DNA from: Naegleria gruberi
Taxonomy: Eukaryota
Reading direction: 5' to 3' (one strand)
DNA length: 64,000 nucleotides
Assembly: GCA_000004985.1 (NCBI GenBank)
Contig: GG738877.1
The notes under the pieces are model-generated. The model saw only the letters and a program-made list of their open reading frames with translations, searched no databases and was not told where the DNA came from. Below are positions 5,861 through 40,245 of the stretch, in pieces. Position 1 is the first letter of the stretch; every line of letters starts with the position of its first letter. A program made the position numbers and the translations under genes.

Positions 5861-8752
5861 ATGAGTCATCATCACAATAACAACCACCACCAACAGATGT
5901 TGAATCAATCATCCAATTCTCCACACCTTTCTTCCACCAGCAATGGTGCTGTTACTTCCCAACAACATCACAATACCACCACCACACCAATAACCTCCTC
6001 CACATCAACAACAACGACAAATAGTACACCCTCTAGTATTCAATCATCAACAACGACCACTCCAAATTCCTCCTCCACCAATAATAATAATACATTTCCC
6101 ATCCTCATTGGTGGAGTTTTACTTTCCAATCCTTCTCCTTCATCTTCCTCGTCAACAACAACAACAACACAAATCATCACATCACTTCATCAAATCCTCC
6201 GACAAGTAATAATACCAATAATACTACGACAATTACAACAGAATCGGCACCAAATAGTAATAATTTAAATGCTGCCACTTCATCCAATGATGGAAATATG
6301 CCTCCGAATGCAATTGTTTATAATTCACCAGTAACACTCTATACAGTGGCTTGTACCCATTGTAGAAAGCAACACAAGAAGGTTAGTATTTAAATCTTTA
6401 ATACCTTTTATTAAATAATATTGTTATTTGTAAAGTGTGTAAGTAATATTAAATACATTTGGAGAATGTTTACAATTTTAATAGGATCGTAAAATGCCAA
6501 GTTGTGACCGATGTATTCAGAAAGGAATTAAATGTGAATATAAAGAATCGAAAAGAACACCAAATGGTCAACCTGGTCAACCAATTGAAACTAGTCAACC
6601 ACAAGAAAAATCAACGAGGAAAAAGAAAAAATCAAAATCTCATTCATTTGTATTGGAATCAACAAATGGAAAGGATGAAAAAAATGATAATGAGATATCA
6701 ATTGAAGAGGAAGGATTATCAAAGAGACAAGTTATTGATTTTTACTTTAGTTTTGCAAGTGATGGATTTCCTCTAATGAATAAGGATGATCTGGAAAAGT
6801 GTCCATCTCTGTATTCAGTCTATCTCAAAGATATTGATGAGGAGAGAATGATTATCAAGGAAGATGAAACAGTAGATAATGAAAAAGTAAATAAGGAACT
6901 GGTGGCATTGTTTTTGGGAACTAAAGCTGTTTGTGAAGTGAGATGTGGAATGATGGAGGTTAGTGAAAAAACAGCCAAACTTGCCCGAGCAGCAGTTAGT
7001 AGATATTTTGATAGTCATGAAAGCTTTTTCGTTGCTACTACCTATGCTCTCTTAGCTCAATTTGAAATTTGGAACTCGAGAATTACCAATGCCAAGTTTT
7101 ACCTTCAATTCCCAGCTTTTTATCTCAGAAATAAGTATCTTCAAAAACCAGGATGTGATATTTCACCAACTTCAGGCGAACACGAAGTTGGTCAATGTAC
7201 AAAATGTATGTCAATCATGACCAAATACGAAAAGAATTTGGAAAACAATATTAATTGGGTGGAAAGATGTACCCATTCACTAAGTTCAAATAATGGAAAT
7301 AATACCAAGAGAACATTTTTTGATGTTTCCTATGCAGATGGAGGATTTATTAGCGAAATTCCTAGATACTTTACAATTTTCACTGGTTTGAAATTTCCAA
7401 CTGAATGGATTTCCTCTCTAAATCAAGAAGTTACAGTTAGTAATTGCTTTGATTATTTACAATTGTTAGATTCAATCTTTGCATTTACGACGAGAAACAT
7501 GAGAGAAAGATCAAATATTGAGCTAATCGCCTCAAAGACCAATCCAACACTAGATCTGGATAACAATTCTCCATCGTGCATCTTTCAAGGAGATTATCAA
7601 TATATTGCCTTGTATGAGAGAATGCTAGATGTCGTATTGAATGGATTAAAGATTAGAATTCTCACCAAATTGGGATGTAGTGGTAGAGATCGTGAGAGAG
7701 AAACAATTGAACAAGCAGCATTGAATATTACAATGGCAACTCAACACGAACTGTTTCCACTCTTCCTTCCATATCTAGTTCCATATATTTCAGCAGCAAC
7801 ACTTGTACATTTGAGAGTGTTAAAGATGAATATTCAATCCTATAGTTCGAGCACTTCAACAATTGTTTCACAACATAGAGCCAACAATTGGTCAACTTTA
7901 ATGTATTATGAGGATATTTTGAAAAAGGACTTGAGAGCTATGCAAATTATGGCTAAAAGATTCAAGCTAGTCAGTCTTAACTATAGCAAATTAATGAAAG
8001 AAATCGAGGACACATTTGAAAATTTAGAAAATCTGAAACGATCCACAAAACCAACAATTACAGAATATGAAACTTCTCTTCCACAACAATTCCTGACCTA
8101 TCGACATAATCCACACAATCAGCGAGCACACATGTTGCATCCTCCATCACAAATTCAATCCAATAATATGCAACAAGCCACGAATTTCAATTTTAATCCA
8201 CCACAAGTCCCTCAACCATCAGCATCTTCCTCAACAACCATGCAAAATCCTGGTCTATTCTCACAAATCATACCAAATAATTCACTTCCACTCCATATGG
8301 AATTGCAATCTGCTTCATATTTTGCTAATTTAATGAGTTCACACCAGATGGCCGGTGGTCCACCAATGAGTGGTTTTGACACAACCTCTGCATTTGGAAA
8401 TCTTTTAATGATGCAACAGAATCCTCTCATCAGTAATCCATCACTATCTTCCTCTAGCTCAGCAAATACAAACACAAATAATAATAATAATAATGGTATG
8501 GAATCATTTGGTGGTGGTTTTGGTGGTTTTGGAATGGGAGGTGTGTTTGATCCATTCTTAACTGAGGAAGATTTGGATTTAATCTTCTCAATTCAAAATA
8601 AGGAACAACAACAACAGGTCAATAATTTATCAGTCAACCAAACTGTTTCAAGTAACAATTTGGGTGATCCACTCCAATCAATTTCCCAACTTAATAGTGC
8701 AACAATTCATGATATGATTGATAAACATGTTCAACAAAATGAAAGAAGATAA
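5861..8752 (+). CDS. Zn(2)-Cys(6)-like binuclear-cluster transcription factor, two exons with an intron at about 6382-6484
   Basis: Exon 1 ends ...LYTVACTHCRKQHKK at 6381 and is followed by gttagt. The intron is AT-rich and ends atag at 6484. Exon 2 begins DRKMPSCDRCIQKGIKCEYK, a Gal4-like CX2CX6..CX2CX6C motif. Two reading frames are open across 6086-6300, so the 5' exon structure is uncertain. Confidence 0.6.
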
Positions 8753-8847
8753 ACCAATTGATATTCAAAAATTATTTATTTTCTATTGCAAAAATGTGTT
8801 TTGGTGTTTTTAATGTACATTGTTTTTGTTTCCTCAATAATAATTTG

Positions 8848-11367
8848 TTATTGTAAAAATACATGAATTGAATCTCCTTCACTCAAATTCTTATCAACAA
8901 AAAAGAATTCATCAACATCAGCAAGAATAGTATTCTTAAATCTATCTTGTGAGCTGATCTTTAAACTCAAAACTTTTGTCTCTCCACTATTGCTACTACA
9001 GGCCGAGGTAGAATCGTTGGACAACAATGAACTGGCATCAGAAGTTGAAGTAGAAGTTTTTGGATCTTCCAACTTGGATTGTTTAAAGTCTTTTGCTCTG
9101 TCTGTCAGTAATTGTTTGATATTCTCCAGTGCAAGTTTACCTTGAATAATTTGAATATTATTTGTTTGAGAAACTTCAAAATGTTTCTTATTGACCTTGA
9201 GAGCGGTTGTGTAAAATTGATGGAAATGTTTAGAAATTTCAGAATCCTTTTCGTTTGGATAAATTCCAAACATTTGTTGTTTCTGAATTCTTAATTGAGT
9301 TTGATTAAATTCGTTAATTTGGTCTAAAAGTTTTGAACTATCACTTGCAATATCATCATCCACTTGATAAAATTGGACAATGATTGATATTTCATCTGGA
9401 TTCTTGTTTCTTTTACAAAGAGTTTCTATTTCTGATGAAAATTTAGTTCTCTTACTGTCACGATCATACTTATCAGTACTACTATCAGATGGAACATGAT
9501 CACTATTATTGGCTCCATTATTATTATTATTATTAATACTGTGAACTGGAGTTGTTGCACTAAATGTAGAAACAGTAAGTGCCTTTCTCTTATGTGTTCG
9601 AGGAGAACCATTTGTTGGTGAATAATCAGTTTGAATTGCTGACACACGATTATTCAAAGGGAATGCCAATGTTGGAGTGAGTGGACTTCCAGTACTGTCT
9701 CCATCTCTCATAGATCTTTGTTTGATTCCTTCCCTTGGATTGTTTCTTCTGATTTTTGAAGGATCGTAGAGTCCACGTTGGAACCTCCACTGTTTGTTAT
9801 AACATGTGGCACATACAGGTCCAGATGTGATTTGATCAATATTTTGTGGGAATGTATTTCTATACGATTCAATATTTCCCTCATGAATTGAATAATTCTT
9901 CTTGAAACTAACTTCAGCATCTGAACGACCACAACAATGACAATTGGTTACTTCTCTATTGGGATCTTCGGTTGTGTTAAGTTTTGGTGATTCATTCACT
10001 AATTTAGTTTTCTTAGTCATATTTGGAGTTCCCATAATGTTTTGTTGTGTGGAAATTTGATTTTGCTGTTGATTCATAGGTCGTGAATACAAGTTTCCAT
10101 TCATTTGTTCATAAGTGTGAATCATTAATCCATTAGTTGACTGATTTTGATCGTGTTGATGTTGCATTACATTTTGATTATTTCTCATGACAACATCATC
10201 TAGATTTGTGCCATTTGTGTGTAAATGTTGTGAATTATCAACAACTGAAGTACTTTGTGTATGTTCCACATAAGGAGCAACACTGTCAAAGTATGTGAAA
10301 TTTACCTTGTCACCTCTCCAATCATTGTTATTTTGTGAAAGTTGTAATTGAGTTGAATTATTCATCATTAAATTATCATGATTTGATTGATCTACAAGAT
10401 TTGTATCATTTTCTTGTTGATTTCCTAAGAAATTCAAAATATTATCTTGAATACCATTTGTATAATTCGAAAGTCCAACTTGTTGTTGTAAAGTAGCAGA
10501 ATTCATTGAATGGTGTTGTAATGAAGAATGCATCATTTGATTAGGTTGCGTCAAATGATGATGATTGGCAGTTGAATGATGAACAACTGGTTGTGAAAGA
10601 CCCAAAGCAGCTGCATTTGGCATGGTTGAGTAATGATGATGGTGTGGTTGCATCATGTGTTGTGATTGTTGTTGAAGTAACATTTGTTGCATAACAAAAT
10701 CCTGATGATCAACTGGAGAATTTGCTTCATTTCCAGCACTTCCTCTCATTGCCATATTCAAAATTAAATTACTGTAATCGTTATTCGTTGAATGTGAATT
10801 CAAATTATTTGAATTTGGATCTAGACCATTATTTGAGAAGGAGGAATGTTGATGCAGTGCAGAATTATTCAATTGTGGATAATTCATTGATTGTGTTTGT
10901 AAATGTTGTTGTTGTCTAAATAATTCTTGTAAAACTTGAGTATTTCCTGTATTCGTTCCCATGCCACCAACAATATTTGAACTACCAATAGAACCACCTC
11001 CATTACCCATCATGTGTTGTTGTTGTTGATTACTTGATGAGATTGAATTGTTGTGAGCTAACTGTTGCTGTTGTGAGGAAGAAGAAACACTTGGATCCAC
11101 CATTGTATTATTGTTATTATTGGAGGACATGTTATGAAGTTGATGATGATAGGGTGAAGTTGAGGAGGAAACAAGTGAATTGCTACTTGAGGACATGCCA
11201 GCATTCACTACTGTATTATTGGCAGTATTGTTGAGATTGGGAGATAGTGGTTGTTGTTGTGATTGAGTAGTGGCAGCTGTTGTTGATGGGCTAACGTTCA
11301 TCATTAAATTATCAGCTGTCGAATAAATAGTATTAAGTGTTGCTGCTGCTGTTTGAGACATCATCAT
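8848..11367 (-). CDS. Q/N/S-rich nuclear-type protein with a Cys-pair motif near the C-terminus
   Basis: An 839-aa ORF with poly-Q, poly-N and poly-S tracts. It contains CHCCGRS...CATCYNKQWRF. The spacing does not fit a GATA finger. Confidence 0.55.
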   Translation of the reverse strand: MMMSQTAAATLNTIYSTADNLMMNVSPSTTAATTQSQQQPLSPNLNNTANNTVVNAGMSSSSNSLVSSSTSPYHHQLHNMSSNNNNNTMVDPSVSSSSQQQQLAHNNSISSSNQQQQHMMGNGGGSIGSSNIVGGMGTNTGNTQVLQELFRQQQHLQTQSMNYPQLNNSALHQHSSFSNNGLDPNSNNLNSHSTNNDYSNLILNMAMRGSAGNEANSPVDHQDFVMQQMLLQQQSQHMMQPHHHHYSTMPNAAALGLSQPVVHHSTANHHHLTQPNQMMHSSLQHHSMNSATLQQQVGLSNYTNGIQDNILNFLGNQQENDTNLVDQSNHDNLMMNNSTQLQLSQNNNDWRGDKVNFTYFDSVAPYVEHTQSTSVVDNSQHLHTNGTNLDDVVMRNNQNVMQHQHDQNQSTNGLMIHTYEQMNGNLYSRPMNQQQNQISTQQNIMGTPNMTKKTKLVNESPKLNTTEDPNREVTNCHCCGRSDAEVSFKKNYSIHEGNIESYRNTFPQNIDQITSGPVCATCYNKQWRFQRGLYDPSKIRRNNPREGIKQRSMRDGDSTGSPLTPTLAFPLNNRVSAIQTDYSPTNGSPRTHKRKALTVSTFSATTPVHSINNNNNNGANNSDHVPSDSSTDKYDRDSKRTKFSSEIETLCKRNKNPDEISIIVQFYQVDDDIASDSSKLLDQINEFNQTQLRIQKQQMFGIYPNEKDSEISKHFHQFYTTALKVNKKHFEVSQTNNIQIIQGKLALENIKQLLTDRAKDFKQSKLEDPKTSTSTSDASSLLSNDSTSACSSNSGETKVLSLKISSQDRFKNTILADVDEFFFVDKNLSEGDSIHVFLQ

Positions 11368-12071: not shown

Positions 12072-13313
12072 TCAATCATCTTCCTCATCTTTGTATTGAT
12101 TCAATCCTTGCAGCAATGCAGAACAACCTGAAATTGATGATTTCGTATTAGTAAATTTGGCTCTCTGTAGAGTCCACTTTGAATTTTCACACGTCGCCGA
12201 GCTTTTGGGAGATGTTATTTCCTGTTGTGTAGAGTTGGTCAACTTTCTTTTTTTTAACTCTTTGGCCATCTTGGTTATTTCATTTGGTTTCAATGGTTGT
12301 GAGGATTTGGAAGCGTTAAATATTGAGGCGGATGATGTTCCTTCAATGTTTCTCTTTTTCACACGAGTTGACAATTCTTGTTTGGCAATAATTCCATCCT
12401 CAAGTGTTTCTTCAGGTAACAATGAACGTAGTGTATAGGAATTAACAAAGTTAGCTCCCAATCTTTGTCCCAAATTCTTGCAAGCTTCCTTCTCACTCTT
12501 TCTTAATTGTCTGTGAGAAGCTCTTAGCTGAAAATTTGACTCGAAATCGTTCTCTTGTCTCTTATTGAGTTTAATAATTGATTCCAGTTGAGGGATGGCA
12601 CTTTCTGCTTTCACTAAATCCTCTTTTTCATGATTAATTCTCTGCATTGAATCCATACTTTCCAAATCTTGTCCAATCACAATCATTTCCGAACGGGTAT
12701 CATTAACATCCAAATTAGATACATCGGCATCATTGCTAATGTTCAGTCCTTGACTCTTCCACTTTATTCCACTCACACAATCATAGGTTAATTGTTCAGG
12801 ATTGGTTCTAATCTCCAATCTTCCCGAACAATCATAACATTTCATAACAAATGAATAAATTGGCATTGTTAGAGTTTTTTCCTTCTTTTCATTGTTCATG
12901 TTAAATGTATCAGAATTAATATTATTATTACTATCATCTGTTTCTTCCAATTTTACTTTAACATGATCTAGAGTATTTGTTCCTGAATTTTCTGAATCAT
13001 TATTTAAATTTTCGGAATTATTTAAATTATTATTATTTCCTCCAAACAATCCAACTTGTTTCTTCCGAGCATTGAATCGTGTTCCTTTTGCAATGCCTTT
13101 TGAGCAATGAGTACAGATAGCATTGTATGGCATCTCGAAACGAATGACCAAAGATCCTATTCGTTCATCATCAATATCGGAAGATGAAGAGGCTTTCAAT
13201 TTACTTGCACGTTGTCTCAATGGATGAGAGTGATGATATCCATTAATTGATTTGTGTTTTTTCGGATCAAAATCTGGTGGAATGTACTTGTTTGTTGCTT
13301 TACGTTCTGCCAT
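12072..13313 (-). CDS. YJU2: splicing factor YJU2 / CCDC94-family (DUF572) protein
   Basis: The N-terminus MAERKATNKYIPPDFDPKK...VIRFEMPYNAICTHCSKGIAKGTRFNARKKQV...MKCYDCSGRLEIRTNPEQLTYDCVSG matches the conserved CCDC94/Yju2 zinc-ribbon-like N-terminus. Confidence 0.85.
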   Translation of the reverse strand: MAERKATNKYIPPDFDPKKHKSINGYHHSHPLRQRASKLKASSSSDIDDERIGSLVIRFEMPYNAICTHCSKGIAKGTRFNARKKQVGLFGGNNNNLNNSENLNNDSENSGTNTLDHVKVKLEETDDSNNNINSDTFNMNNEKKEKTLTMPIYSFVMKCYDCSGRLEIRTNPEQLTYDCVSGIKWKSQGLNISNDADVSNLDVNDTRSEMIVIGQDLESMDSMQRINHEKEDLVKAESAIPQLESIIKLNKRQENDFESNFQLRASHRQLRKSEKEACKNLGQRLGANFVNSYTLRSLLPEETLEDGIIAKQELSTRVKKRNIEGTSSASIFNASKSSQPLKPNEITKMAKELKKRKLTNSTQQEITSPKSSATCENSKWTLQRAKFTNTKSSISGCSALLQGLNQYKDEEDD

Positions 13314-30800: not shown

Positions 30801-31888
30801 TGTTGAAGAGGAGTTTTATCCTCAATCGAAGGAGAAACAATTTCTTTTTCTACTATAGTGGGTGTTGAATTTGTTTTGACCTCCTCACTACATGGTGTTG
30901 TGGCATTTTCCTCGTTATATGCAGGTTCAAGACTTGGTGATGATGTAGTCTCTTGAATTGATTCGATGGTATTTGAAGTTTGGAACACCTCATCAGTTAC
31001 AATTGTTGGTGATAATGGGGTATGGTCCACAACATGTGATTCCTCAATATCATATTCTTCAAAGGTTTCCAAATAATCCTCTTCTTCAAACTCAACAACA
31101 TGGTCCTCAGGCTCTGAACTTGTTGGCAGTGTTGTGGTTGTTATTTCAACACTATTTGGAGTAGTATCAATGATCTGCTCTTCTTTGGAAGTAATGATGG
31201 GAAGTTCGGAGCTTTTATATTCTTCTACAGTGTCAATAAGGGATGATTCTGGAAGTGCCTCAATATTACTATTATCTGATATTATTGTTTTAGTTACATC
31301 TATTGGTGAAGTAGAGACTACTGGATGTTCTTCATACTCTTCATATTCCTCGTAAAATTCATCATCGTCAATCTCTTCTGGAGTTAACTCTTCGGTTGTA
31401 AGTTGTTTTTCATGGACTTCGACAAAAGTTGTTGAAGGCTCAGCAAGTTCTTCTTGTTCTTCATCTACCACTTTCTCATTATTTTCCTCAATTATAGGAT
31501 GAATAGGAGTGTAAGAGAAAAAGAAGGAGCTATGATCAGCCTTAAACCTCTTAAAATGAATCTGTGGAGTAGAAGTGGTAATTTTCGACTCAACTTGAGA
31601 GCGAAGTTTTGAGTACCTTTTGGAAATTCTATCCAATGCTTGTATCGGTGATTTGTTCTTTTGCATATCATTACTAGTCTCTTTTAAAATTGCTTGATAA
31701 TTCCTTTCCAAGCTATTTAACTCTTCCTCATTCGAAAATATATCCTGGTTCCTATTTCTATAGAGAAATACACCAAGCTTGGATGGATTTTGTGATTGAA
31801 GGGATTTTAATTCATTCTTGCCGTCTTGTTGATGATTTTCATTGAGTTTTTCAAATCGCGCTCTCAATGACTTCCACCCTTCCGTCAT
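27878..31888 (-). CDS. large (1336-aa) repeat-rich protein with an acidic EEYEE region, PEVK-like P/K/V/T tandem repeats and a C-terminal globular domain
   Basis: One uninterrupted ORF. Repeats are of the form KPLP..KALPVV.PKP. I cannot assign a family to the C-terminal ~500 aa. Confidence 0.65.
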   Translation of the reverse strand: MTEGWKSLRARFEKLNENHQQDGKNELKSLQSQNPSKLGVFLYRNRNQDIFSNEEELNSLERNYQAILKETSNDMQKNKSPIQALDRISKRYSKLRSQVESKITTSTPQIHFKRFKADHSSFFFSYTPIHPIIEENNEKVVDEEQEELAEPSTTFVEVHEKQLTTEELTPEEIDDDEFYEEYEEYEEHPVVSTSPIDVTKTIISDNSNIEALPESSLIDTVEEYKSSELPIITSKEEQIIDTTPNSVEITTTTLPTSSEPEDHVVEFEEEDYLETFEEYDIEESHVVDHTPLSPTIVTDEVFQTSNTIESIQETTSSPSLEPAYNEENATTPCSEEVKTNSTPTIVEKEIVSPSIEDKTPLQQQPVFVEQPIDVNSLEIVEKEITTITLKSSRIDEKAPSSPKLEEKTSPKTTKTIEKSPEKQSIVSTPNVHESKETTLISLKPVVVKEEKLLDPSVPIKVEEPKQTTVKPLPIVTKDKLAEIPKVVESSEPKALPVPVEPKQVVVETPKVETNSQTSTSFTILNTQKETTTTVEVKLITEPEKQIEKETVQPIKPIVEIKPLPILKALPQQPSLPVVDSPTKPLPLVPKKPVKALPVVSPKPIEVAKDVFEVQASTSPVDSEPITPVEPESTPTTVVETKPDPVFEKKASEPTISRTASIRSYFSSFLSKTPKKPDPKVSPLEIKEIETPIAKPLPAIAKMVKEESIKEGEESDDETTEHSVVNIDDFLSEGEPESNIDPQSVPKSEKEDIIEEEKISDIISTHEEEPSSSVDVLVSVLEKQAMEKGSEGRKVSITSTTDSHSSSGERSDSRKSKRANRKKTGSSPHQQEAGALLLQEFLDSNPSSRSSSTKKEATQELAQEVTVEHAVLEDFIGEDCALLSTISETNTTTSNTLTHPSPSRSDSAHNETTPLSCTPKSLYDLYSPITPKRKEKMFENFVDPSTFPKGWEKPYTFLYTEKPLMEHPLLDKLRRNIIDLLTSSMTEETRVSGIVNINRTSPLLAPLVHSIYSILTNRTKPTIFKSDRDLCTIFSKLDIVKKEKIVQDFLAFKEVRILDPKKLKERDLLFIQYLLQSKLLAVCTYELALNQKYTAMCFEETSIMNLEEYSPTIFAVLNLLKKHFNFELKFEFELSQQAGGSKEEGTLIATLQGNIKTLLQYIIEIGKNEKIPINAITDESKNHNIGKVVRSLIMYILKSILMDKLISESKWKNFAGTLISHPWHLITACAKGELSKVGMNVKTGYSFDSIVLTIDSTVKKKNQTTKQQLLDDKFFSFVVYCLNYQILTDALKFIFKNIMILEKNYRPDSIMCDPVQQDHILTILTPLSKLRFTLNFY

Positions 31889-32745: not shown

Positions 32746-33361
32746 TTTTACAAATTAAATCATTTATTTTTTCTTGGCTGGATTCAAATTCCTTCTTGAG
32801 TGCTTAGGTAAAGGAATTCCTTTAATCTGTGATTTTCTTTCTTCTTTTGGAATTTCATTAATTTTAGGTGTTCTGTTGTTTCTATTGGTTCAGTTAGTTT
32901 CTGGTTTTTCAGATTGAGATGAAGATGGAATAGAATTAGAAGAATATGGTTCAGATGAGTAGTTGTTACATTGCAAATTAATAAAAACAAGATTGAGAAC
33001 AAGTAATTATACTAATGGGTATTAAAGCTTAGGGACTGTTTCATCTTTAAGGTGATTCAGCCTTGAGACCTGCTTTAATGGATATAAATCTTTATTAGCA
33101 TTGGCTGTTTCGAATCGAAGAAGCGAGAGCAGAAGCACCTTGTGAACCAACCTTGGCGTTGTTTGAGTCTTTGCCAGGTGATATCTTTTGCTAATTGTTC
33201 TTCTTGTTCTTCTTCGTGTCTTGAACAGGAGGTGAAGGCATAACAGAACTATCAGATGAATTAGGTTATTGTGGTGATAATTTTTGAGCATGGAAAAATA
33301 CTCAACTTATATTTTATTAAGTTTACAATGAAAACAAGTTAATTCTTCACTTCGCTCAGAA

Positions 33362-33637
33362 TTAGACACCAGTGGCTGCTAATCCAACACGTCTTAAATA
33401 TCGTTTCTTGGATTTAGAATTAAGCACCCAATTACCCGCTGTAGCAATAATCACCTCAGAAACTCCCTTAGAAGCCAACTCGGTGGCTGTACCTATACGA
33501 AAGCTATGTCCAGAGACATGATTAGTTCCTACGGACATTGCATTCTTAATAATATATGATAGATCAGTTGTTTCTAAATACAGGTCGTCGAACAAAGAGA
33601 ATAATGGAGAATCTCCAGACTTGAAATGTTTAACCAT
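33362..33637 (-). pseudogene. tyrosine recombinase C-terminal catalytic fragment (box II)
   Basis: GHSFRIGTATELASKGVSEVIIATAGNW...KRYLRR. This is the H-x-x-R...G-N-W...Y tyrosine-recombinase signature. Confidence 0.65.
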
Positions 33638-33747
33638 TATCGAAGTTTACTGTGATAAATGGAATACCTAGGAGTTTTGTTAGACTTCCATCAAGGTTTG
33701 GTAAAAATTCCAGAAGACAAAAAGATTACAGCTTTAGAATTCATAGA

Positions 33748-33972
33748 TCAAGAAACAATTGGATGGATGGACAGGTTCTGATTATTTATATTCCATAAAA
33801 TGGGAGTATGTCAATGCACTAAGCCGCAGCAATAAGCTTGCAGAGTATCGAGTATTGCTTAGAACTTTTGCTGTTAACTAAAAAACTTACCAATTATCAG
33901 ACATTACAAGAAATTTCACAATTAATTACGAAGAACTAGATTGTTTTCTGTTAAAGCAACAATGTATTACTT
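33748..33972. repeat. left copy of a ~225-bp inverted repeat pair; partner at 37972-38207
   Basis: I aligned it by hand against the reverse complement of 37972-38207. The match is near-identical, with a few substitutions and one ~6-nt indel. It covers caagaaacaattggatggatggacaggttctgattatttatattccataaaatgggag... Confidence 0.8.
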
Positions 33973-35939
33973 AATTATTAATAAATTTATTTTTAAAAAA
34001 TCCTTGTGTTGAATCTATCGGATAATCCGGATCCAGGATTCACGTTTTTATTGGAATCTTGGATCCAACTGATCCGTGTGGGATTTGGATCAAGGATTTT
34101 CCATCCCCTAGGTGTAGGGAATACTTGTTGTGCATTATGTTGTGGAGGTCTAGTATTAATTAAAAGATTGATTCTGTTTATTGGTTTTATCTTTTTATCT
34201 TTATTCATCATCTCTTTTGGGGTTTTCTTTGGAATGATTGTTTACTATTTTGAAACAGAAGACATTCTAGAATTAGATATAGATTAATAGACTTCCGGAA
34301 AAAGTTTTGCTAAAAGTCGACTTTTTTAAGGTACTTTCACGCTAATTTGCAAAAAGGCGCCTAAAAGGTGCCTTTTTTACTAAAAACTACTTGAAACACA
34401 TCCAAAGTTTGTTCAAGAAAATCTTGAGCAACTTTCAAACTGTTTTCAAATAATTCCTCAAAACGTTCAAGTATTTGCTGAAAAAACCCCAAGGGCCTTC
34501 AAACTTCTGAACTCACTCTCTTTCTTAACTATATCCCATCCAAAAAATCCACCAATTCCTTAAGAGATCCAAGGTTTTTGAATGTCACCTGGTAATTGTT
34601 CTATAATGTCCTTTAACTCGGCACTCATAATTGCAGAGTAGAGGTCACCATCAGATTTTTTAAATAGATTAAAAATATTTTTTGCCCATAGTAGATTGCA
34701 TTTTTGTATTTTGGGCGTAAGTTCCTCTATAGTTGAAAATAAAGTTGTGTTTTCCATTCCGTCAATACTACTCAGTGCTGATGCTAACGTGAAAAGAGCC
34801 ATATCAGAGTTGGAGGCTGAATTAGTTGGACAGGAGGCAAAAGAGCTTTGTGATAGGGATCTGGTGAGAATCATAATGTATTTTTTTTTAAGTCTAAAAT
34901 TATTGGTTGCCAAGACTCCAAGTTTGCAATGTCGATAATGGCTGAAAATGCAAAAAATCAAAGAACTGAAGAAGGGAATTCGCTGTGGGTTTAATCAATT
35001 TTTTGAAATTAGGCAACATACAAGACTCCACCAACAGAGTATTTTGTTCAATTCCATACGGTGATTGGGTCAAAGTGCTTACTGGAATGTTATCAAAGAA
35101 TACCACATTTCCATTTAGTTTTACTTTACGAGAGTGGATAGATATAATTGAGATACTAAAAATGTTCGAATTACCTTTCCATTATTGGAAATATTTGACT
35201 ATGCAATCCCCATACGCTCTATTAGCCCTTCATCTACATTTATCCATATCTGAAAACTTGAGTTGTGAACATAATTATTTATTGGGATTAAAACCTGATA
35301 TGTATTGGTTTTCAAGTTGAAAAAATAACAAAACAAGGAGATTTGTTGGATCAGGCATTCACAAACCTATGGAAAAACTCTTTACATATCTTTTTCGGGA
35401 CTGATACTGAAGCTGTGAAATGGTTTGTTCAAAATGACAAGGATAATTTCTTTTCTTGGAACACAACAATCACTTCTTTACGCAAATGTTTACGTTAAGG
35501 TATTGAGAACTGCCTAGAGAAATTTAAAACTATTAAAAACAAATGTGTTACGTTCTGTTACTTATATTGTAGGAAACAACAACGAGATTATGGGCAAAGA
35601 TTAATCAATTCCTTACTACCAATCTTATTTACTGTTTTGCTTGGTGTTGTTGATTTTTGTGCCTTTCAGGGTAATTCTATTATCCTAGATTCTACTGCTT
35701 TTGCTGTAGACACTGGTTTATCAATTGCTAATGCTATACTTTCACTCGCCTCTTCGATAGGGAATGCAGTCCTCCCAATGCAGCAAGTGTTTATAACTCA
35801 ATCGTGAAAGCACTTGTTGATGCTGTTGATTCAGGAGGTGGTTTGTTTACAAAGTTCCCTCCTTCAAGTATTGAAAAAGATTGTCCTTCATAGAGTATAA
35901 TGAAGGGCAATCTTTCTTGGATAATCTACTTTGATACTA

Positions 35940-36639
35940 GATTACGATAAATTATAGAGGTCTCCAGGTCTTGCTAATAATCTGAAACCAATAATTAAAA
36001 TGGCTGTAGTTAAATTAAATGTGAATTCATCGTGGGAAGCCACGGAATCAATATAATTCTTAATATCATAAGCTGAAACTCCATTTCTTTTTAGTTTCTT
36101 TCTATCAACAATGTAAGTATACCTTAAGTCCTTTCTTTAGTCTAGCAAAACTATTGGGAACATTAAGTTTCCAACCTTCAACGTTGAAGAACGAGAAAGA
36201 ATTGAAGAGCTGGCTTCAAATTGTTTAAATCATACCCTTTCTTATTAACTGAAAGGTAAGCTGCAAAGCATTCTATTGCATAAGGATTAGATCTTGGAAT
36301 ATTGTGAATCACTAAGAACCATTGGAAAGCTCCATAAACTTTGGAATATTTCTGAATGGTTGAATTGGCTAGAGAAATTGATAGGTAATTTCTCATCAGT
36401 AATATAGTTGACCGTTCACTTGAGCTACCAGGAATGTTTGATCTTCGAAGTTGTTGAATAATTCGGTGTACGGATCCACGATAAGCATTCTTCTTGGAAC
36501 CTTTCTTACTTTTAAGGATATCCTTAATAGTATTGGGAACCAATGAGAAGTTGGCCACTCCGGCACTACAAAAGTTCCCTTCGCTCTCTAATTTGATTAG
36601 ATGGAAAAGTGCTTGGGGAATCAGACCTAAAGGAGGCAC
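35940..36639 (-). pseudogene. tyrosine recombinase N-terminal core-binding domain and box I; ends at a stop
   Basis: Core-binding-like block: STIQKYSKVYGAFQWFLVIHNIPRSNPYAIECFAAYLSVNKKG. A second frame reads ...AILIIGFRLLARPGDLYNLS*, which is box I with the Arg. Confidence 0.55.
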
Positions 36640-36651
36640 GCAATAATTCAG

Positions 36652-37817
36652 TTAGTCTTTCTCCCAGGGTTGACCGAATGCATCGGTTTCCATCCAACTG
36701 TTGTATGTTATTGTCACGGCGAATGGGTCTACTGTATGGTGACCGAATTCTTCTACCAAATCTATCAATTCTTGCGAAGATTTCCAATCTCCTAATCTGC
36801 TTAGTCTGTCTGCAATCTTGTTTTCTCTTGATGGGATGTTGACTACTTTGCTGATGTGCCAATCTTCTTTGATTAAGATTATCCAAATGTCTCTTGCAAT
36901 TTCGGATAAATGACTGAGATAGCCGTAACCTTTTGCTACATAAGATAGAGCTGTAGAGTTGTCCCCTCTTATTTCAATGTGAGTATCTTTGGGAAACAAT
37001 CTCAATCAGCTTGCTTCTTTGAAGAATTGAAATATCGCTATCAATTCTTTCACGTTGAATGATGAATCTATTTCGAACTTGCCTACGACGATAGTTTTTG
37101 AGGAGTGGATTGCAAATCCTTCCAGAGATGCATCTGAATTGATTATTATTGACTCTGGAGCGTCGAGTATTAACCAAGAGCCTTTGGATGATTGGATAAT
37201 TTTTCGTAATACCCTCAAATCTTTGGCAGGGCCTCGATTCACTAGCATACTTCCTTTTGAATCTACTCTTATTGTCATTTGCTTTCTTAAACTATCCAGA
37301 AATGGTCTGATCGCCGGATCTGCCAGAGATAGAAATTCCATCTTTCCAATAAACTTGGCTATGAATCTTGTTTGTGCTTAAACCGAACGGAAGGCATTGA
37401 AAGTGGTATGTTTTGCCTTCGAAGATGAATCCTAATAGGACTTTGTTGTTTCCTTACTGGAACTTGAAAACAACCTTTCTTTAAATCCAACTTGCATGCC
37501 CACATCCCTTTTCTTATGAATTTCATAACTTTTTGAATGGATTCCATCTTGAGTGAGTCTGTGCTTTTGCCATCGTTTATCTTTCTTAGGTCCAAGATAA
37601 ACCTCTATTCGGCTGAACCTTTCTTTGGGACAACGTTGATAGGATTTAGAACTGGATTTAAAGAATAGGTTATAATTTGGTTTTGTAACATGGAGTCAAT
37701 CTCTCTCCTTATCCATGCTTTCTCTTTCTGAGAGAACTCCTCTGGTGGTAGTTTTTCCATTGGCTGGAATCTGAATCGCTTCAAAACCACCAGAACCGGC
37801 ACCCAATTTAATGGCAA
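36652..37817 (-). pseudogene. reverse transcriptase plus RNase H of the YR-retroelement; frameshifted
   Basis: RT blocks: LNPINVVPKKGS, KLDLKKGCFQVPV, YHFQCLPFGLS. RNase H blocks: NSDASLEGFAIHS, GDNSTALSYVAKGYGY, HISKVVNIPSRENKIADRLSR. The pieces are spread over at least three frames. Confidence 0.75.
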
Positions 37818-37971
37818 TATAATTTAAGTCAGCAATATTCTGGATGAATTCAATAGCTTGAAGCCATTCAACTAAATCAAAAGAGTACCATTTCTCAATC
37901 TTTTACAAACTTGTACAATAATGTGAGATTGGGCTAGTAGTAAAGGATAACCTTTACTTCTAAATTCTTTT

Positions 37972-38207
37972 GAAGTAATACATTGTTGTTTACACTTGCT
38001 TTAACTGGAAAACAATCTAGTTCTTCGTAATTAATTGTGAAATTTCTTGTAATGTCTGATAATTGGTAAGTTTCTTCGTTGACAGCAAAAGTTCTAAGCA
38101 AAACTCGATACTCTGCAAGCTTATTGCTGCGGCTTAGTGCATTGACATACTCCCATTTTATGGAATATAAATAATCAGAACCTGTCCATCCATCCAATTG
38201 TTTCTTG
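37972..38207. repeat. right copy of the inverted repeat pair, lying immediately 5' of the RT fragment
   Basis: Reverse-complement match to 33748-33972. Identity decays at both ends (about 37970 and 38210). Confidence 0.8.
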
Positions 38208-38904
38208 TTCTTCTTTAATTTCCTCTCTTTGATTCTTTTAATTTGCCTAATTTGACATATCAGTCTAGTGCCTTTTTGTCAAATTGTAAAAAATAATCAC
38301 CTTGTTTCAATATTGTCAGTTCATCATTTAAATTAATATCTTCTGATTCATTAAATTGAGAAAGTATTTGGAAGATAATTGACTTGTTTCTGAGCAAAGT
38401 TGTAATTGTTTTTGTTTGTCAAATCTTCTAGCTCTTGCAACATCACACGAGTACTTATTTGCAAAAGTAAGATGTCATCTTTATCCATAAACATAGATAC
38501 AAGTCTTGATTTCAATTCTTTAACATCTTTACCAATTCCTGAGAATGTTTATTTATTAACGTTTGAAATTGTTCCATTAAAAATTGGAAGTGCAATACAC
38601 AAATGTTTATTCATATGATTTTACATTGAAAAGTGTCGAGAAACATTAATAAGGCAAGCCCGTATTCTTTACCGTACTAAAAGACCATCCAAGATTTAAA
38701 CATTCATTTAGATTTTTTTCAAAATCTAAAGAAAGTGTTTCAGAATTTTTCCTTCTGAAACTTTCATCAAATAGAGTAAACTAGTTTGATAATAATAAGC
38801 ACGTATTCTCTTAATTACTAAATTATAAACATGCCTATCTTATCTCGAATACTTGCTTTTTTTAAATTAATTGTTCAAGAATTTAAGGAATTAGGCGGGA
38901 AAAA

Positions 38905-40245
38905 ATGAGCACAAATACAACAACATGGCAATCATCCACAAATAAACAACAATACAAGCACCTCCATCGATCGGCAACACAGATACAGGTATGTTGTTGT
39001 GTAATTTTCTTATTGTTATAATGAATTAGAGCCAATGGAGAGGTCATAAAACAAGGAAACAGATCACAGATTGGGCAATGAAGGAATTTGAAAATATTGT
39101 GATGGAGATCGAAGGAAAGGATTCGGAAATATCTTGGAATTCATCGAAGTTGCATTCCTTACCAATGCCATCTGTTTCAAATACAAAATTGAGGTAATTT
39201 TCAAAGAATTTAAATATTTGAATTAAAAATCGGAAATTGATAATCAAATAATGTAGTGAGGATGAAAATGATTTGGATAGGATTCTATCAAACTTTGTAA
39301 ATAGGAATGATGCTTCACCTTCATCGTCATCAAATGAACCATCTAATCAACCAATATTCATGAAGAATGCTCAGAAATTATTCGAGGAAAAACTGAAAGA
39401 AGCATTTCAGGAACCCTCGGTTCAAACCCCAGAACCTCAAACTCTAAATACTGGTATGAATACATCCGTAATGAACATTCCTAAAATTACAAAAGAACAG
39501 GAAATTCAAACAGAAACACTCAGAACCTCAATAATATCTAAAGAACCTCTGCAAGCAATAACTCCTCAAAATAGAAGACTTGTGACAGTTTCCACAAACA
39601 CCAGTATTGCATTTGATGGAATTCCAAAAATTCAAGAACAAAAAACTCAAGATTTATCTATTGAAATACCTCTCGAAGATACTTCATCAGTTCAATCACA
39701 AGAAGATTTGTCAGACATGTTAGATGAAAGTGCCATAATGATGTCTAATTTGGACATGCTTAAAAGTTTTGATTTCTCAGAAATGAAGAAATCATCAGAT
39801 AGCACCATTTCAACCCAGGCACCAACCAAATCAAAGGAGCCATTCATGCCTCAACAACCAATTCAATCAAAACAAAATGTTTCAAACGATTTCAGTACAA
39901 CTAGATTGAAACAGAGCCAAGAAATTCCACCATCCAAAAACAACTCTATCCTTTCCAATAATAATACTACCAACAATTCTATCAAGTCCAATTTGACTGC
40001 CTCTGTAAATCAAACCACTCCCTCACCTAGCTCATCACAAACTAGTGAAAAATTGCAACAACAGCAAAAACAAGCCAAACAAGAATTACAACAACAAATG
40101 AACATGCTACGATATGAAATTCAATTGGCTGAGGAAGCCTATTCGAGGAGAAAAAAGGTAAGTTGTCTATTTTCATATTTCGAGATTTGTTTACATTTTC
40201 AATGAATAGGAACTTGTTGAAGAAAGGAAGAGGCACATTAGGTAA
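38905..40245 (+). CDS. IQ-motif-containing S/T/N-rich coiled-coil protein, 4 exons
   Basis: Exons are 38905-38988, 39030-39193, 39257-40157 and 40210-40245, with GTATGT, GTAATT and GTAAGT donors and TAG acceptors. Exons 1 and 2 read MSTNTTTWQSS...ATQIQ|SQWRGHKTRKQ, which is an IQxxxRGxxxR motif. Exon 3 carries a C-terminal coiled coil. Confidence 0.55.

Follow-up and report, generated by a model that had tools for sequence, protein, structure and literature searches.

How does the recombinase gene of a retrotransposon come to lie in two pieces, more than 2 kb apart and separated by DNA that carries an inverted copy of another part of the same locus? This question is raised by positions 33.1–38.2 kb of a 64-kb stretch of Naegleria gruberi DNA (contig GG738877.1; the whole stretch is referred to below as the window), where an earlier note had recognised the remnant of a tyrosine-recombinase (YR) retrotransposon on the minus strand and had explained the interruption by one copy of the element inserted in inverted orientation into another. 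Whilst the remnant itself was borne out by tblastn searches with the open reading frames (ORFs) of intact relatives, the explanation fared less well: our analysis points instead, with a probability that we put at roughly 60%, to a relic of a DIRS-order YR retrotransposon in the nuclear genome of N. gruberi, rearranged and without present function, which would descend from an already defective tandem or circle-junction-containing copy.

To find relatives of the element, the minus strand was translated conceptually with its stops masked; a search with this translation returned 32 proteins, the best of them from short metagenome/SRA contigs at 57–71% identity. The pieces in the window were then mapped by tblastn using the ORFs of the intact relatives, chiefly those of metagenome contig L001. 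On the minus strand they follow one another as mid/C-terminal gag, reverse transcriptase (RT), ribonuclease H (RNase H), a methyltransferase (MT)-like domain and the YR, and the RT, RNase H and YR pieces all match L001 with 65–76% amino acid and 70–73% nucleotide identity. Given this similar level of identity, RT/RNase H and the two halves of the YR come from a single family, and the possibility raised in the earlier note that they do not can be set aside. The individual pieces, with the strand and the method of detection, are:

37973–38211, minus strand: repeat R, probably mid-gag, one arm of an inverted pair (self-comparison).
37699–37970, minus strand: conserved C-terminal domain of gag (~aa 197–270 of the relatives), frameshifted (tblastn and profile hidden Markov model, HMM).
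37373–37777, minus strand: pol, N-terminal part of RT (aa 86–221 of L001 pol; tblastn).
37369–37372, minus strand: deletion junction, with RT aa 222–335 gone (tblastn and blastn).
36399–37368, minus strand: pol, RT thumb, RNase H and Dam-like methyltransferase region (aa 336–667; tblastn).
35891–36396, minus strand: YR-N, the N-terminal domain and box I of the YR (aa 1–168; tblastn).
33973–35907, no strand: U, 1.94 kb (1,935 bp), apparently non-coding, the bulk of the interruption (homology, domain, RNA and codon-usage searches).
33745–33972, plus strand: R', inverted copy of R, 228 bp (self-comparison).
33659–33748, plus strand: RT fragment 'EYLGVLLDFHQGLVKIPEDKKITALEFIDQ' (~aa 292–321 of pol; tblastn and tblastx).
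33362–33637, minus strand: YR-C, the C-terminal catalytic block of the YR (aa 205–295) with HxxR and the region of the catalytic Tyr (tblastn and Pfam).
33113–33369, minus strand: remnant of the YR–gag spacer and N-terminal region of gag (tblastn and spacer comparison).

The earlier note had missed the deletion within RT, the plus-strand RT fragment abutting R' and the N-terminus of gag after the C-terminus of the YR.

The split of the YR gene was read correctly in that note. YR-N lies in three frames (two frameshifts) and passes through box I ('LLARPGDLYNLS') before a TAA stop codon directly after 'ARPGDLYNLS', with nucleotide homology to the YR reaching 35908. YR-C (aa 205–295 at 33637–33368; 69% identity to L001 YR, tblastn E=1.5e-34) is an intact 91-aa ORF (33362–33637; GHSFRIG...GNW...KRYLRR) and the sole piece that is still open; as a fragment it matches Pfam Phage_integrase with E=0.003, and the full-length YRs of the relatives exceed the Pfam cutoff (28.6–44 bits vs 27.1). 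Both pieces are 69–74% identical to L001 YR and the RxxxxxHxxR...Y blocks are visible, the element thus possessing a tyrosine recombinase in place of a DDE integrase. Between the two pieces lie 2,267 bp (33641–35907), and YR aa 169–204 (~120 nt) have been lost at the split. The window copy is also without the final YR codons and ~85 nt of the post-YR spacer, the lost spacer including a motif (TCTCGNAAC...ACCCATTNGT) that is kept at the YR stop in L001, L003 and L006. A 16-nt hairpin (94% complementary, 8-nt loop) is found at 35876–35915, exactly where YR homology stops; it was considered as a fold-back junction and rejected, as the complementarity extends no further and its bases still align to L001 YR.

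The remaining coding parts are heavily decayed. The N-terminal part of RT (37777–37373) is spread over three frame segments and contains one in-frame stop, and pol aa 336–667 (37368–36399; 65–76% identity to L001 pol) contain two in-frame stops and one frameshift. Between them, 342 nt of the RT catalytic region are deleted: tblastn stops at aa 221 (37373) and restarts at aa 336 (37368), blastn shows a gap from L001 nt 1471 to 1824, and the window has a clean 4-nt junction. The deleted aa 222–335 are the segment with the YIDD catalytic motif in the relatives and hence Pfam RVT_1 matches the window translation only weakly (E=0.02), even though this translation is 65–86% identical to the pol of relatives (tblastn). 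In case of the MT region, a Pfam search of the window fragment gave no match, yet the fragment aligns to the MT-like region of the relatives. The C-terminal domain of gag was detected both by tblastn (L004 gag aa 199–263 at 37967–37771, E=9e-9 and 2.6e-6) and by a gag profile HMM (38000–37875, E=8e-7; 37902–37699, E=5e-9). Over the whole copy there are at least six frameshifts and four in-frame stops (three in pol, one in YR-N): the copy is dead and unable to make RT or YR.

We turn to the content of the interruption, which reads on the plus strand as ~18 unassigned nt, the 90-nt RT fragment, R' and then U, with an element-derived part of 314 bp to ~0.33 kb (14%). The inverted copy of ~225 bp described in the earlier note is real: the arms at 33745–33948 and 38008–38211 are complementary over 204 nt at 98%, and blastn extends the repeat to 239 nt at 93% (38211–37973 vs 33745–33972, E=2e-99), R' differing from R by four mismatches across the first 204 nt and then by an 11-nt deletion. 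Such a match is far beyond chance, and when the proposed self-comparison of 32.5–39 kb was run, against the whole window, no repeat other than R/R' was found. R and R' start at exactly the same nucleotide. Both are preceded by AGA(A/T)CAAG, a sequence that would suit either a crossover core or a microhomology junction. The plus-strand RT fragment (33659–33748) shows 60% identity to L003 pol aa 262–291 (tblastn E=2.7e-6; tblastx E=1e-7), falls within the pol segment that is deleted from the main copy and is fused straight to the start of R', giving an order of RT then mid-gag that is not colinear with the element. The 104 nt that separate YR-C from R' were also read on the minus strand, as the lost YR aa 169–204, and this reading was rejected, being not significant whereas the plus-strand RT reading is.

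These results bear directly on the idea that the YR gene of one copy received, in inverted orientation, a further copy of that element, an event often seen in DIRS elements, and that the insert decayed later. Opposite-strand DNA of the family is indeed present in the insert (the RT fragment and R'), R and R' are 98% identical, and YR-N and YR-C share one orientation and are near-contiguous (aa 168 and aa 205), which fits a single interrupted gene. However, the idea does not account for an insert of 2.27 kb of which only 14% is element-derived; RT aa 292–321 joined directly to mid-gag match no element order, and R' leads into the unrelated U and not into gag-C and pol. U also shows no residual similarity by tblastx or profile, though the host copy is still 65–76% identical to its relatives. 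Furthermore, ~120 nt of the target YR are gone. DIRS1 integration is modelled as recombination at a 3-bp sequence without target-site duplication (PMC3266345), and we would not expect a deletion of target DNA from it. The part of the earlier explanation that stands is therefore the inverted element DNA within the insert; the nesting of one copy in another we now consider unlikely.

The nature of U is central here, since the earlier note had named a single-copy host gene as the alternative to repeat DNA. The longest start-to-stop ORF in U has 133 aa, no Pfam domain was found in its six frames, its ORFs as queries find no homologue among 5.8 billion proteins, searches for Rfam families and tRNAs returned none, and blastn and tblastx matched U neither to other parts of the window nor to the relatives. 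Codon-usage scores of the U ORFs do not exceed 0.051, the 5th percentile of host genes being 0.101 and the 95th percentile of spurious ORFs 0.087. A host gene was rejected on the basis of these short ORFs, their scores in the spurious range and the lack of a Pfam domain or homologue, a structured RNA or tRNA locus on the basis of the empty Rfam and tRNA searches, and a diverged part of the element because blastn, tblastx and the gag profile all found nothing; two weak gag-like matches inside U (E=0.28–0.5) were dropped, as the gag profile did not confirm them. U thus cannot be recognised as a copy of the element and is probably not a host gene either: coding signal and homologue are both lacking, yet there is also no relative beyond L002, a metagenome contig with which U shares its first 227 nt beside the YR (35907–35681). 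Exact-match scans of JGI metagenomes with a 24-mer from R and a 25-mer from the U junction gave zero matches.

In contrast to the interpretation of the inverted copy as the element's own 5' end, R adjoins the conserved C-terminal domain of gag without a break (gag aa 199 at 37967–37970, beginning '...KEFRSKGYPLLLAQ'), whilst the N-terminus of gag is located at 33369–33277, where L004 gag aa 1–31 are matched (tblastn E=9e-6 for the whole window, 7e-8 for the subregion). R itself has no significant similarity to the relatives' gag by tblastx or profile; judging from contiguity and spacing, it would represent the poorly conserved middle of gag and not the 5' end of the element. The gag N-terminal piece, which is continued by a colinear weak match (aa 61–106, down to 33113, E=0.08), directly abuts the C-terminal end of the YR. 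Since the N-terminus of gag thus lies after the C-terminus of the YR, and R and gag-C before pol, the minus-strand pieces amount to approximately one element unit in circularly permuted order: mid/C-gag, pol, YR, spacer remnant, N-gag. There is no counterpart of the gag-N piece upstream of R; an overlap of its 3' end with the sequence upstream of R was considered and rejected, the match being only 20 nt, purine-rich and of z ~1.9. Across 31.5–40 kb, direct repeats were limited to pairs of 20–24 nt at 75–85%, which is at chance level, so that split direct repeats are lacking, and no further match of at least 20 nt to the ends of R/R' was found that could serve as an internal complementary region (ICR). 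The inverted pair of 204–239 nt is present, but with one arm inside the split YR gene and with YR-C and gag-N outside the pair.

The relatives offer a context for this permuted order. L001 and L003–L006 carry abutting ORFs for gag (~350–400 aa), pol (596–668 aa) and YR (~300 aa), with 49–73% pol identity among them. Their pol matches RVT_1 (E=1e-19 to 1e-24) and, weakly, RVT_3 (RNase H), and in three relatives Dam (PF05869) is matched at the same position with 20–26 bits, below the cutoff of 28.1; the RVT_3 and Dam matches (E=7e-6 to 6e-4) sit at residues that correspond to 36399–37368 of the window. Three Logan contigs from three different runs, L006 (1–4127, ERR2815209), L007 (1–4079, ERR2815274) and L008 (1–3821, ERR2815266), are 100%-identical circular permutations of one 4,097-bp unit, the coordinates of L008 implying a 3,792-bp unit without ~305 nt of the YR. 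Their pol is 49% identical to that of L001. L006 reads gag, pol, YR, a 138-nt spacer and gag again, and is closed by a 30-nt overlap of its ends. The unit shows neither inverted terminal repeats (ITRs) nor split direct repeats, and the contigs suggest that a DIRS-type element is present in tandem arrays or as extrachromosomal circles. The idea that circular contigs are an artefact of how DIRS termini assemble in general was rejected: the contigs of a more distant family (L009–L013), whose longest members have the same ends and no terminal repeats, assemble as linear molecules, and circularity is thus specific to the L006 family. In addition, the 150 nt past the L003 YR stop share homology with the beginning of L004 as well as with the start of the gag-N piece in the window.

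A chromosomal copy in N. fowleri (P0042, FDP41_013244; pol 43–50% identical to that of L001/L006) is, in comparison, a plain gag–pol–YR element between host genes, with no gag past the YR and no long terminal repeats. It occupies ~8440–12670 of L014 (VFQX01000017.1), with gag at 8623–9801, a frameshifted pol and a YR truncated after GHSMRIGSATK, and is flanked by the genes of a P-type ATPase and a coiled-coil protein. Its RT is annotated as hypothetical protein FDP41_013244; a 28-nt inverted match of 75% (8440–8467 and 12642–12669, TGT...ACA) may mark its ends. The order YR then gag is hence the native adjacency of the circular or tandem forms in this clade and not that of a canonical integrated copy, which is why the window copy looks like the remnant of a tandem or circle junction. 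The clade of L001, L003–L008 and the N. fowleri copy is previously uncharacterised. It is conceivable that its members persist or replicate as repeat-free units of ~4.1 kb, in circles or head-to-tail tandems, with no ITR or ICR and no split direct repeats, that the window copy is a fossil broken or integrated non-canonically in mid-gag, and that the boundary between AGA(A/T)CAAG and AAACAATTGG at R/R' is the crossover site of the recombinase; in this full form we hold the scenario to be decidedly improbable.

Information on the age of the composite comes from L002, a contig of 1,622 bp that is 94% identical to 37264–35681; the match takes in the TAA that follows box I and extends over 227 nt of U. 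The 5' boundary is a different one, the first 50 nt of L002 having no counterpart in the window. As L002 shares both the junction and the stop whilst being differently bounded, the YR/U junction appears to predate the window copy: on this comparison, at least this junction was already present in an ancestor from which two copies with different boundaries derive. The last ~400 nt of L002 (1220–1622 vs window 36100–35681) are 99.5% identical and the upstream part ~92%, with several indels, a mosaic that could be due to gene conversion between copies or to chimeric assembly.

The same contig bears on two further explanations. The first is that the draft Sanger assembly merged reads of different degenerate copies and so produced an apparent insertion and inverted repeat. 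Several divergent copies do exist in N. gruberi (PMC3266345), and independent support is lacking for three junctions (33641, 33745, 33972); against this, the window contains zero runs of N, U is unique rather than repeat DNA prone to misjoins, and the YR-N/U junction was assembled independently in L002, all of which makes an artefact very improbable indeed.

The second takes R and R' as ITRs of a non-autonomous DIRS1-like element of 4.47 kb (33745–38211), with U in its interior, that was mobilised in trans and came to lie beside an older fragment of the same family, namely the RT scrap, YR-C and gag-N. In its favour, the two arms agree to the nucleotide in their outer ends and, amid heavily decayed coding parts, are 98% identical, as ITRs renewed at transposition would be, L002 shows the YR-N/U junction in a second copy, and N. 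gruberi copies have been assigned to the ITR-bearing DIRS1-like superfamily (PMC3266345). However, no ICR matches the repeat ends, R continues unbroken into the coding sequence of the gag C-terminus, and no relative has ITRs: the L006 unit is a repeat-free circle and N. fowleri has only its 28-nt, 75% inverted match. Under this explanation the plus-strand RT target should resume beyond the element, which it does not from 38212 onward, and the near-adjacent position of YR-N and YR-C on the same strand would be a coincidence, estimated at ~1–2% by chance. We therefore view an ITR-bounded unit as improbable.

The preferred reading of a rearranged relic would involve several steps. Within the YR of the defective starting copy, a complex rearrangement may have taken place, either because a second, rearranged copy inserted and later decayed or because a break was repaired with filler DNA, and microhomology at AGA(A/T)CAAG may have taken part. 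The composite would later have been duplicated or mobilised in trans, and may have decayed further since. Several points weigh against this reading: U has no traceable origin, the mid-gag identity of R lacks its own similarity to relatives and leans on contiguity and spacing, and three of the four internal junctions (33641, 33745, 33972) are supported by the draft assembly alone. The shared start nucleotide of R and R' is not predicted by random rearrangement and would fit the termini of a mobile unit or a site-specific crossover. One copy and a 1.6-kb contig are too little for the sequence of events to be retraced, and L002 could be the allelic or orthologous locus of a related strain, or a chimeric contig.

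DIRS-1 of Dictyostelium discoideum is the type element of the DIRS1-like retrotransposons, which belong to the DIRS order. DIRS1-like and PAT-like elements are told apart by their termini, the former having ITRs and an ICR and the latter split direct repeats; PAT-like elements (Pat1, Toc3, Kangaroo) are an MT-bearing sister group with repeats arranged as A1...B1-A2-B2. VIPER is found in Discoba, the supergroup including Naegleria. The predicted coding set of our element, with gag, a pol comprising RT, RNase H and an MT-like region, and the catalytic part of the YR 3' of pol, would place it in the DIRS group. The earlier note had argued from the domain order for PAT or Ngaro over DIRS-1, an argument that fails because the catalytic part of the YR also lies 3' of pol in DIRS1 (PMC3266345). 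With DIRS1-like elements the locus shares the coding set with its putative Dam-like MT region and, in the window copy, a long inverted repeat pair; it differs in that the window lacks an ICR and the relatives ITRs, in that pol and YR of the intact relatives merely abut (4-nt overlap) without extensive overlap, and in that one repeat arm lies inside the YR gene and the YR C-terminus outside the pair. The MT-like region and the separate, consecutive ORFs for gag, pol and YR are found in PAT-like elements as well, and the order YR then gag N-terminus in the window superficially resembles an A2 repeat, but the window has no direct repeats of at least 20 nt beyond chance and the main copy no A1 matching gag-N. 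Ngaro and VIPER resemble the element in having RT and RNase H followed by the YR with little ORF overlap, and in case of VIPER the hosts are related to Naegleria. They are without an MT domain (PMC3266345, PMC4157794), and the Dam-like region of the relatives, with its consistent sub-threshold matches and retention in the window at 65–76%, argues against both. The Naegleria/metagenome clade has the same ORF order and sizes and ~4.1 kb per unit; most of its copies have open ORFs (that of N. fowleri is partly degenerate), whereas the window copy has a permuted order, an internal deletion and an interruption.

The biology of the copy is ordinary. Seven degenerate DIRS1-like copies in six families have been published for N. 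gruberi (Piednoel et al. 2011, PMC3266345), assigned by TBLASTX and described as 'with too many frameshifts or indels' for phylogeny, and DIRS elements have been annotated in N. lovaniensis (PMC6125883). As a dead transposon relic of a type and species already catalogued, the locus matters little by itself; for annotation, the 5.1 kb at 33.1–38.2 kb are better masked as DIRS-derived than gene-modelled. With the intact relatives and the N. fowleri locus, on the other hand, it could become possible to build a consensus of heterolobosean YR retrotransposons, to fix their termini and to place them with DIRS1 or PAT, points that the 2011 survey did not resolve.

Of ten long ORFs tested in the window, seven are identical to annotated N. 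gruberi proteins, all encoded on one 394.7-kb scaffold. The surroundings of the remnant are gene-dense, with ~35% G+C over the 64 kb, and the element occupies a gap of ~7 kb between host ORFs that end at 31888/32516 and the next, which starts at 39273. Within the coding sequence of the MT-like/pol C-terminal region, a 26-nt near-perfect palindrome (92%) is present at 36507–36532; it is also found in L002 and is probably incidental. Finally, the motif at or just past the YR stop of the relatives extends over ~25 nt, TCTCG(G/T)(A/G)AC...ACCCATT(T/A)GT (L001 3722–3745, L003 3960–3985, L006 3851–3875), and is shared by subfamilies that are otherwise only 49–58% identical in pol, which makes it a candidate cis element, for example a recombination core, primer site or promoter.

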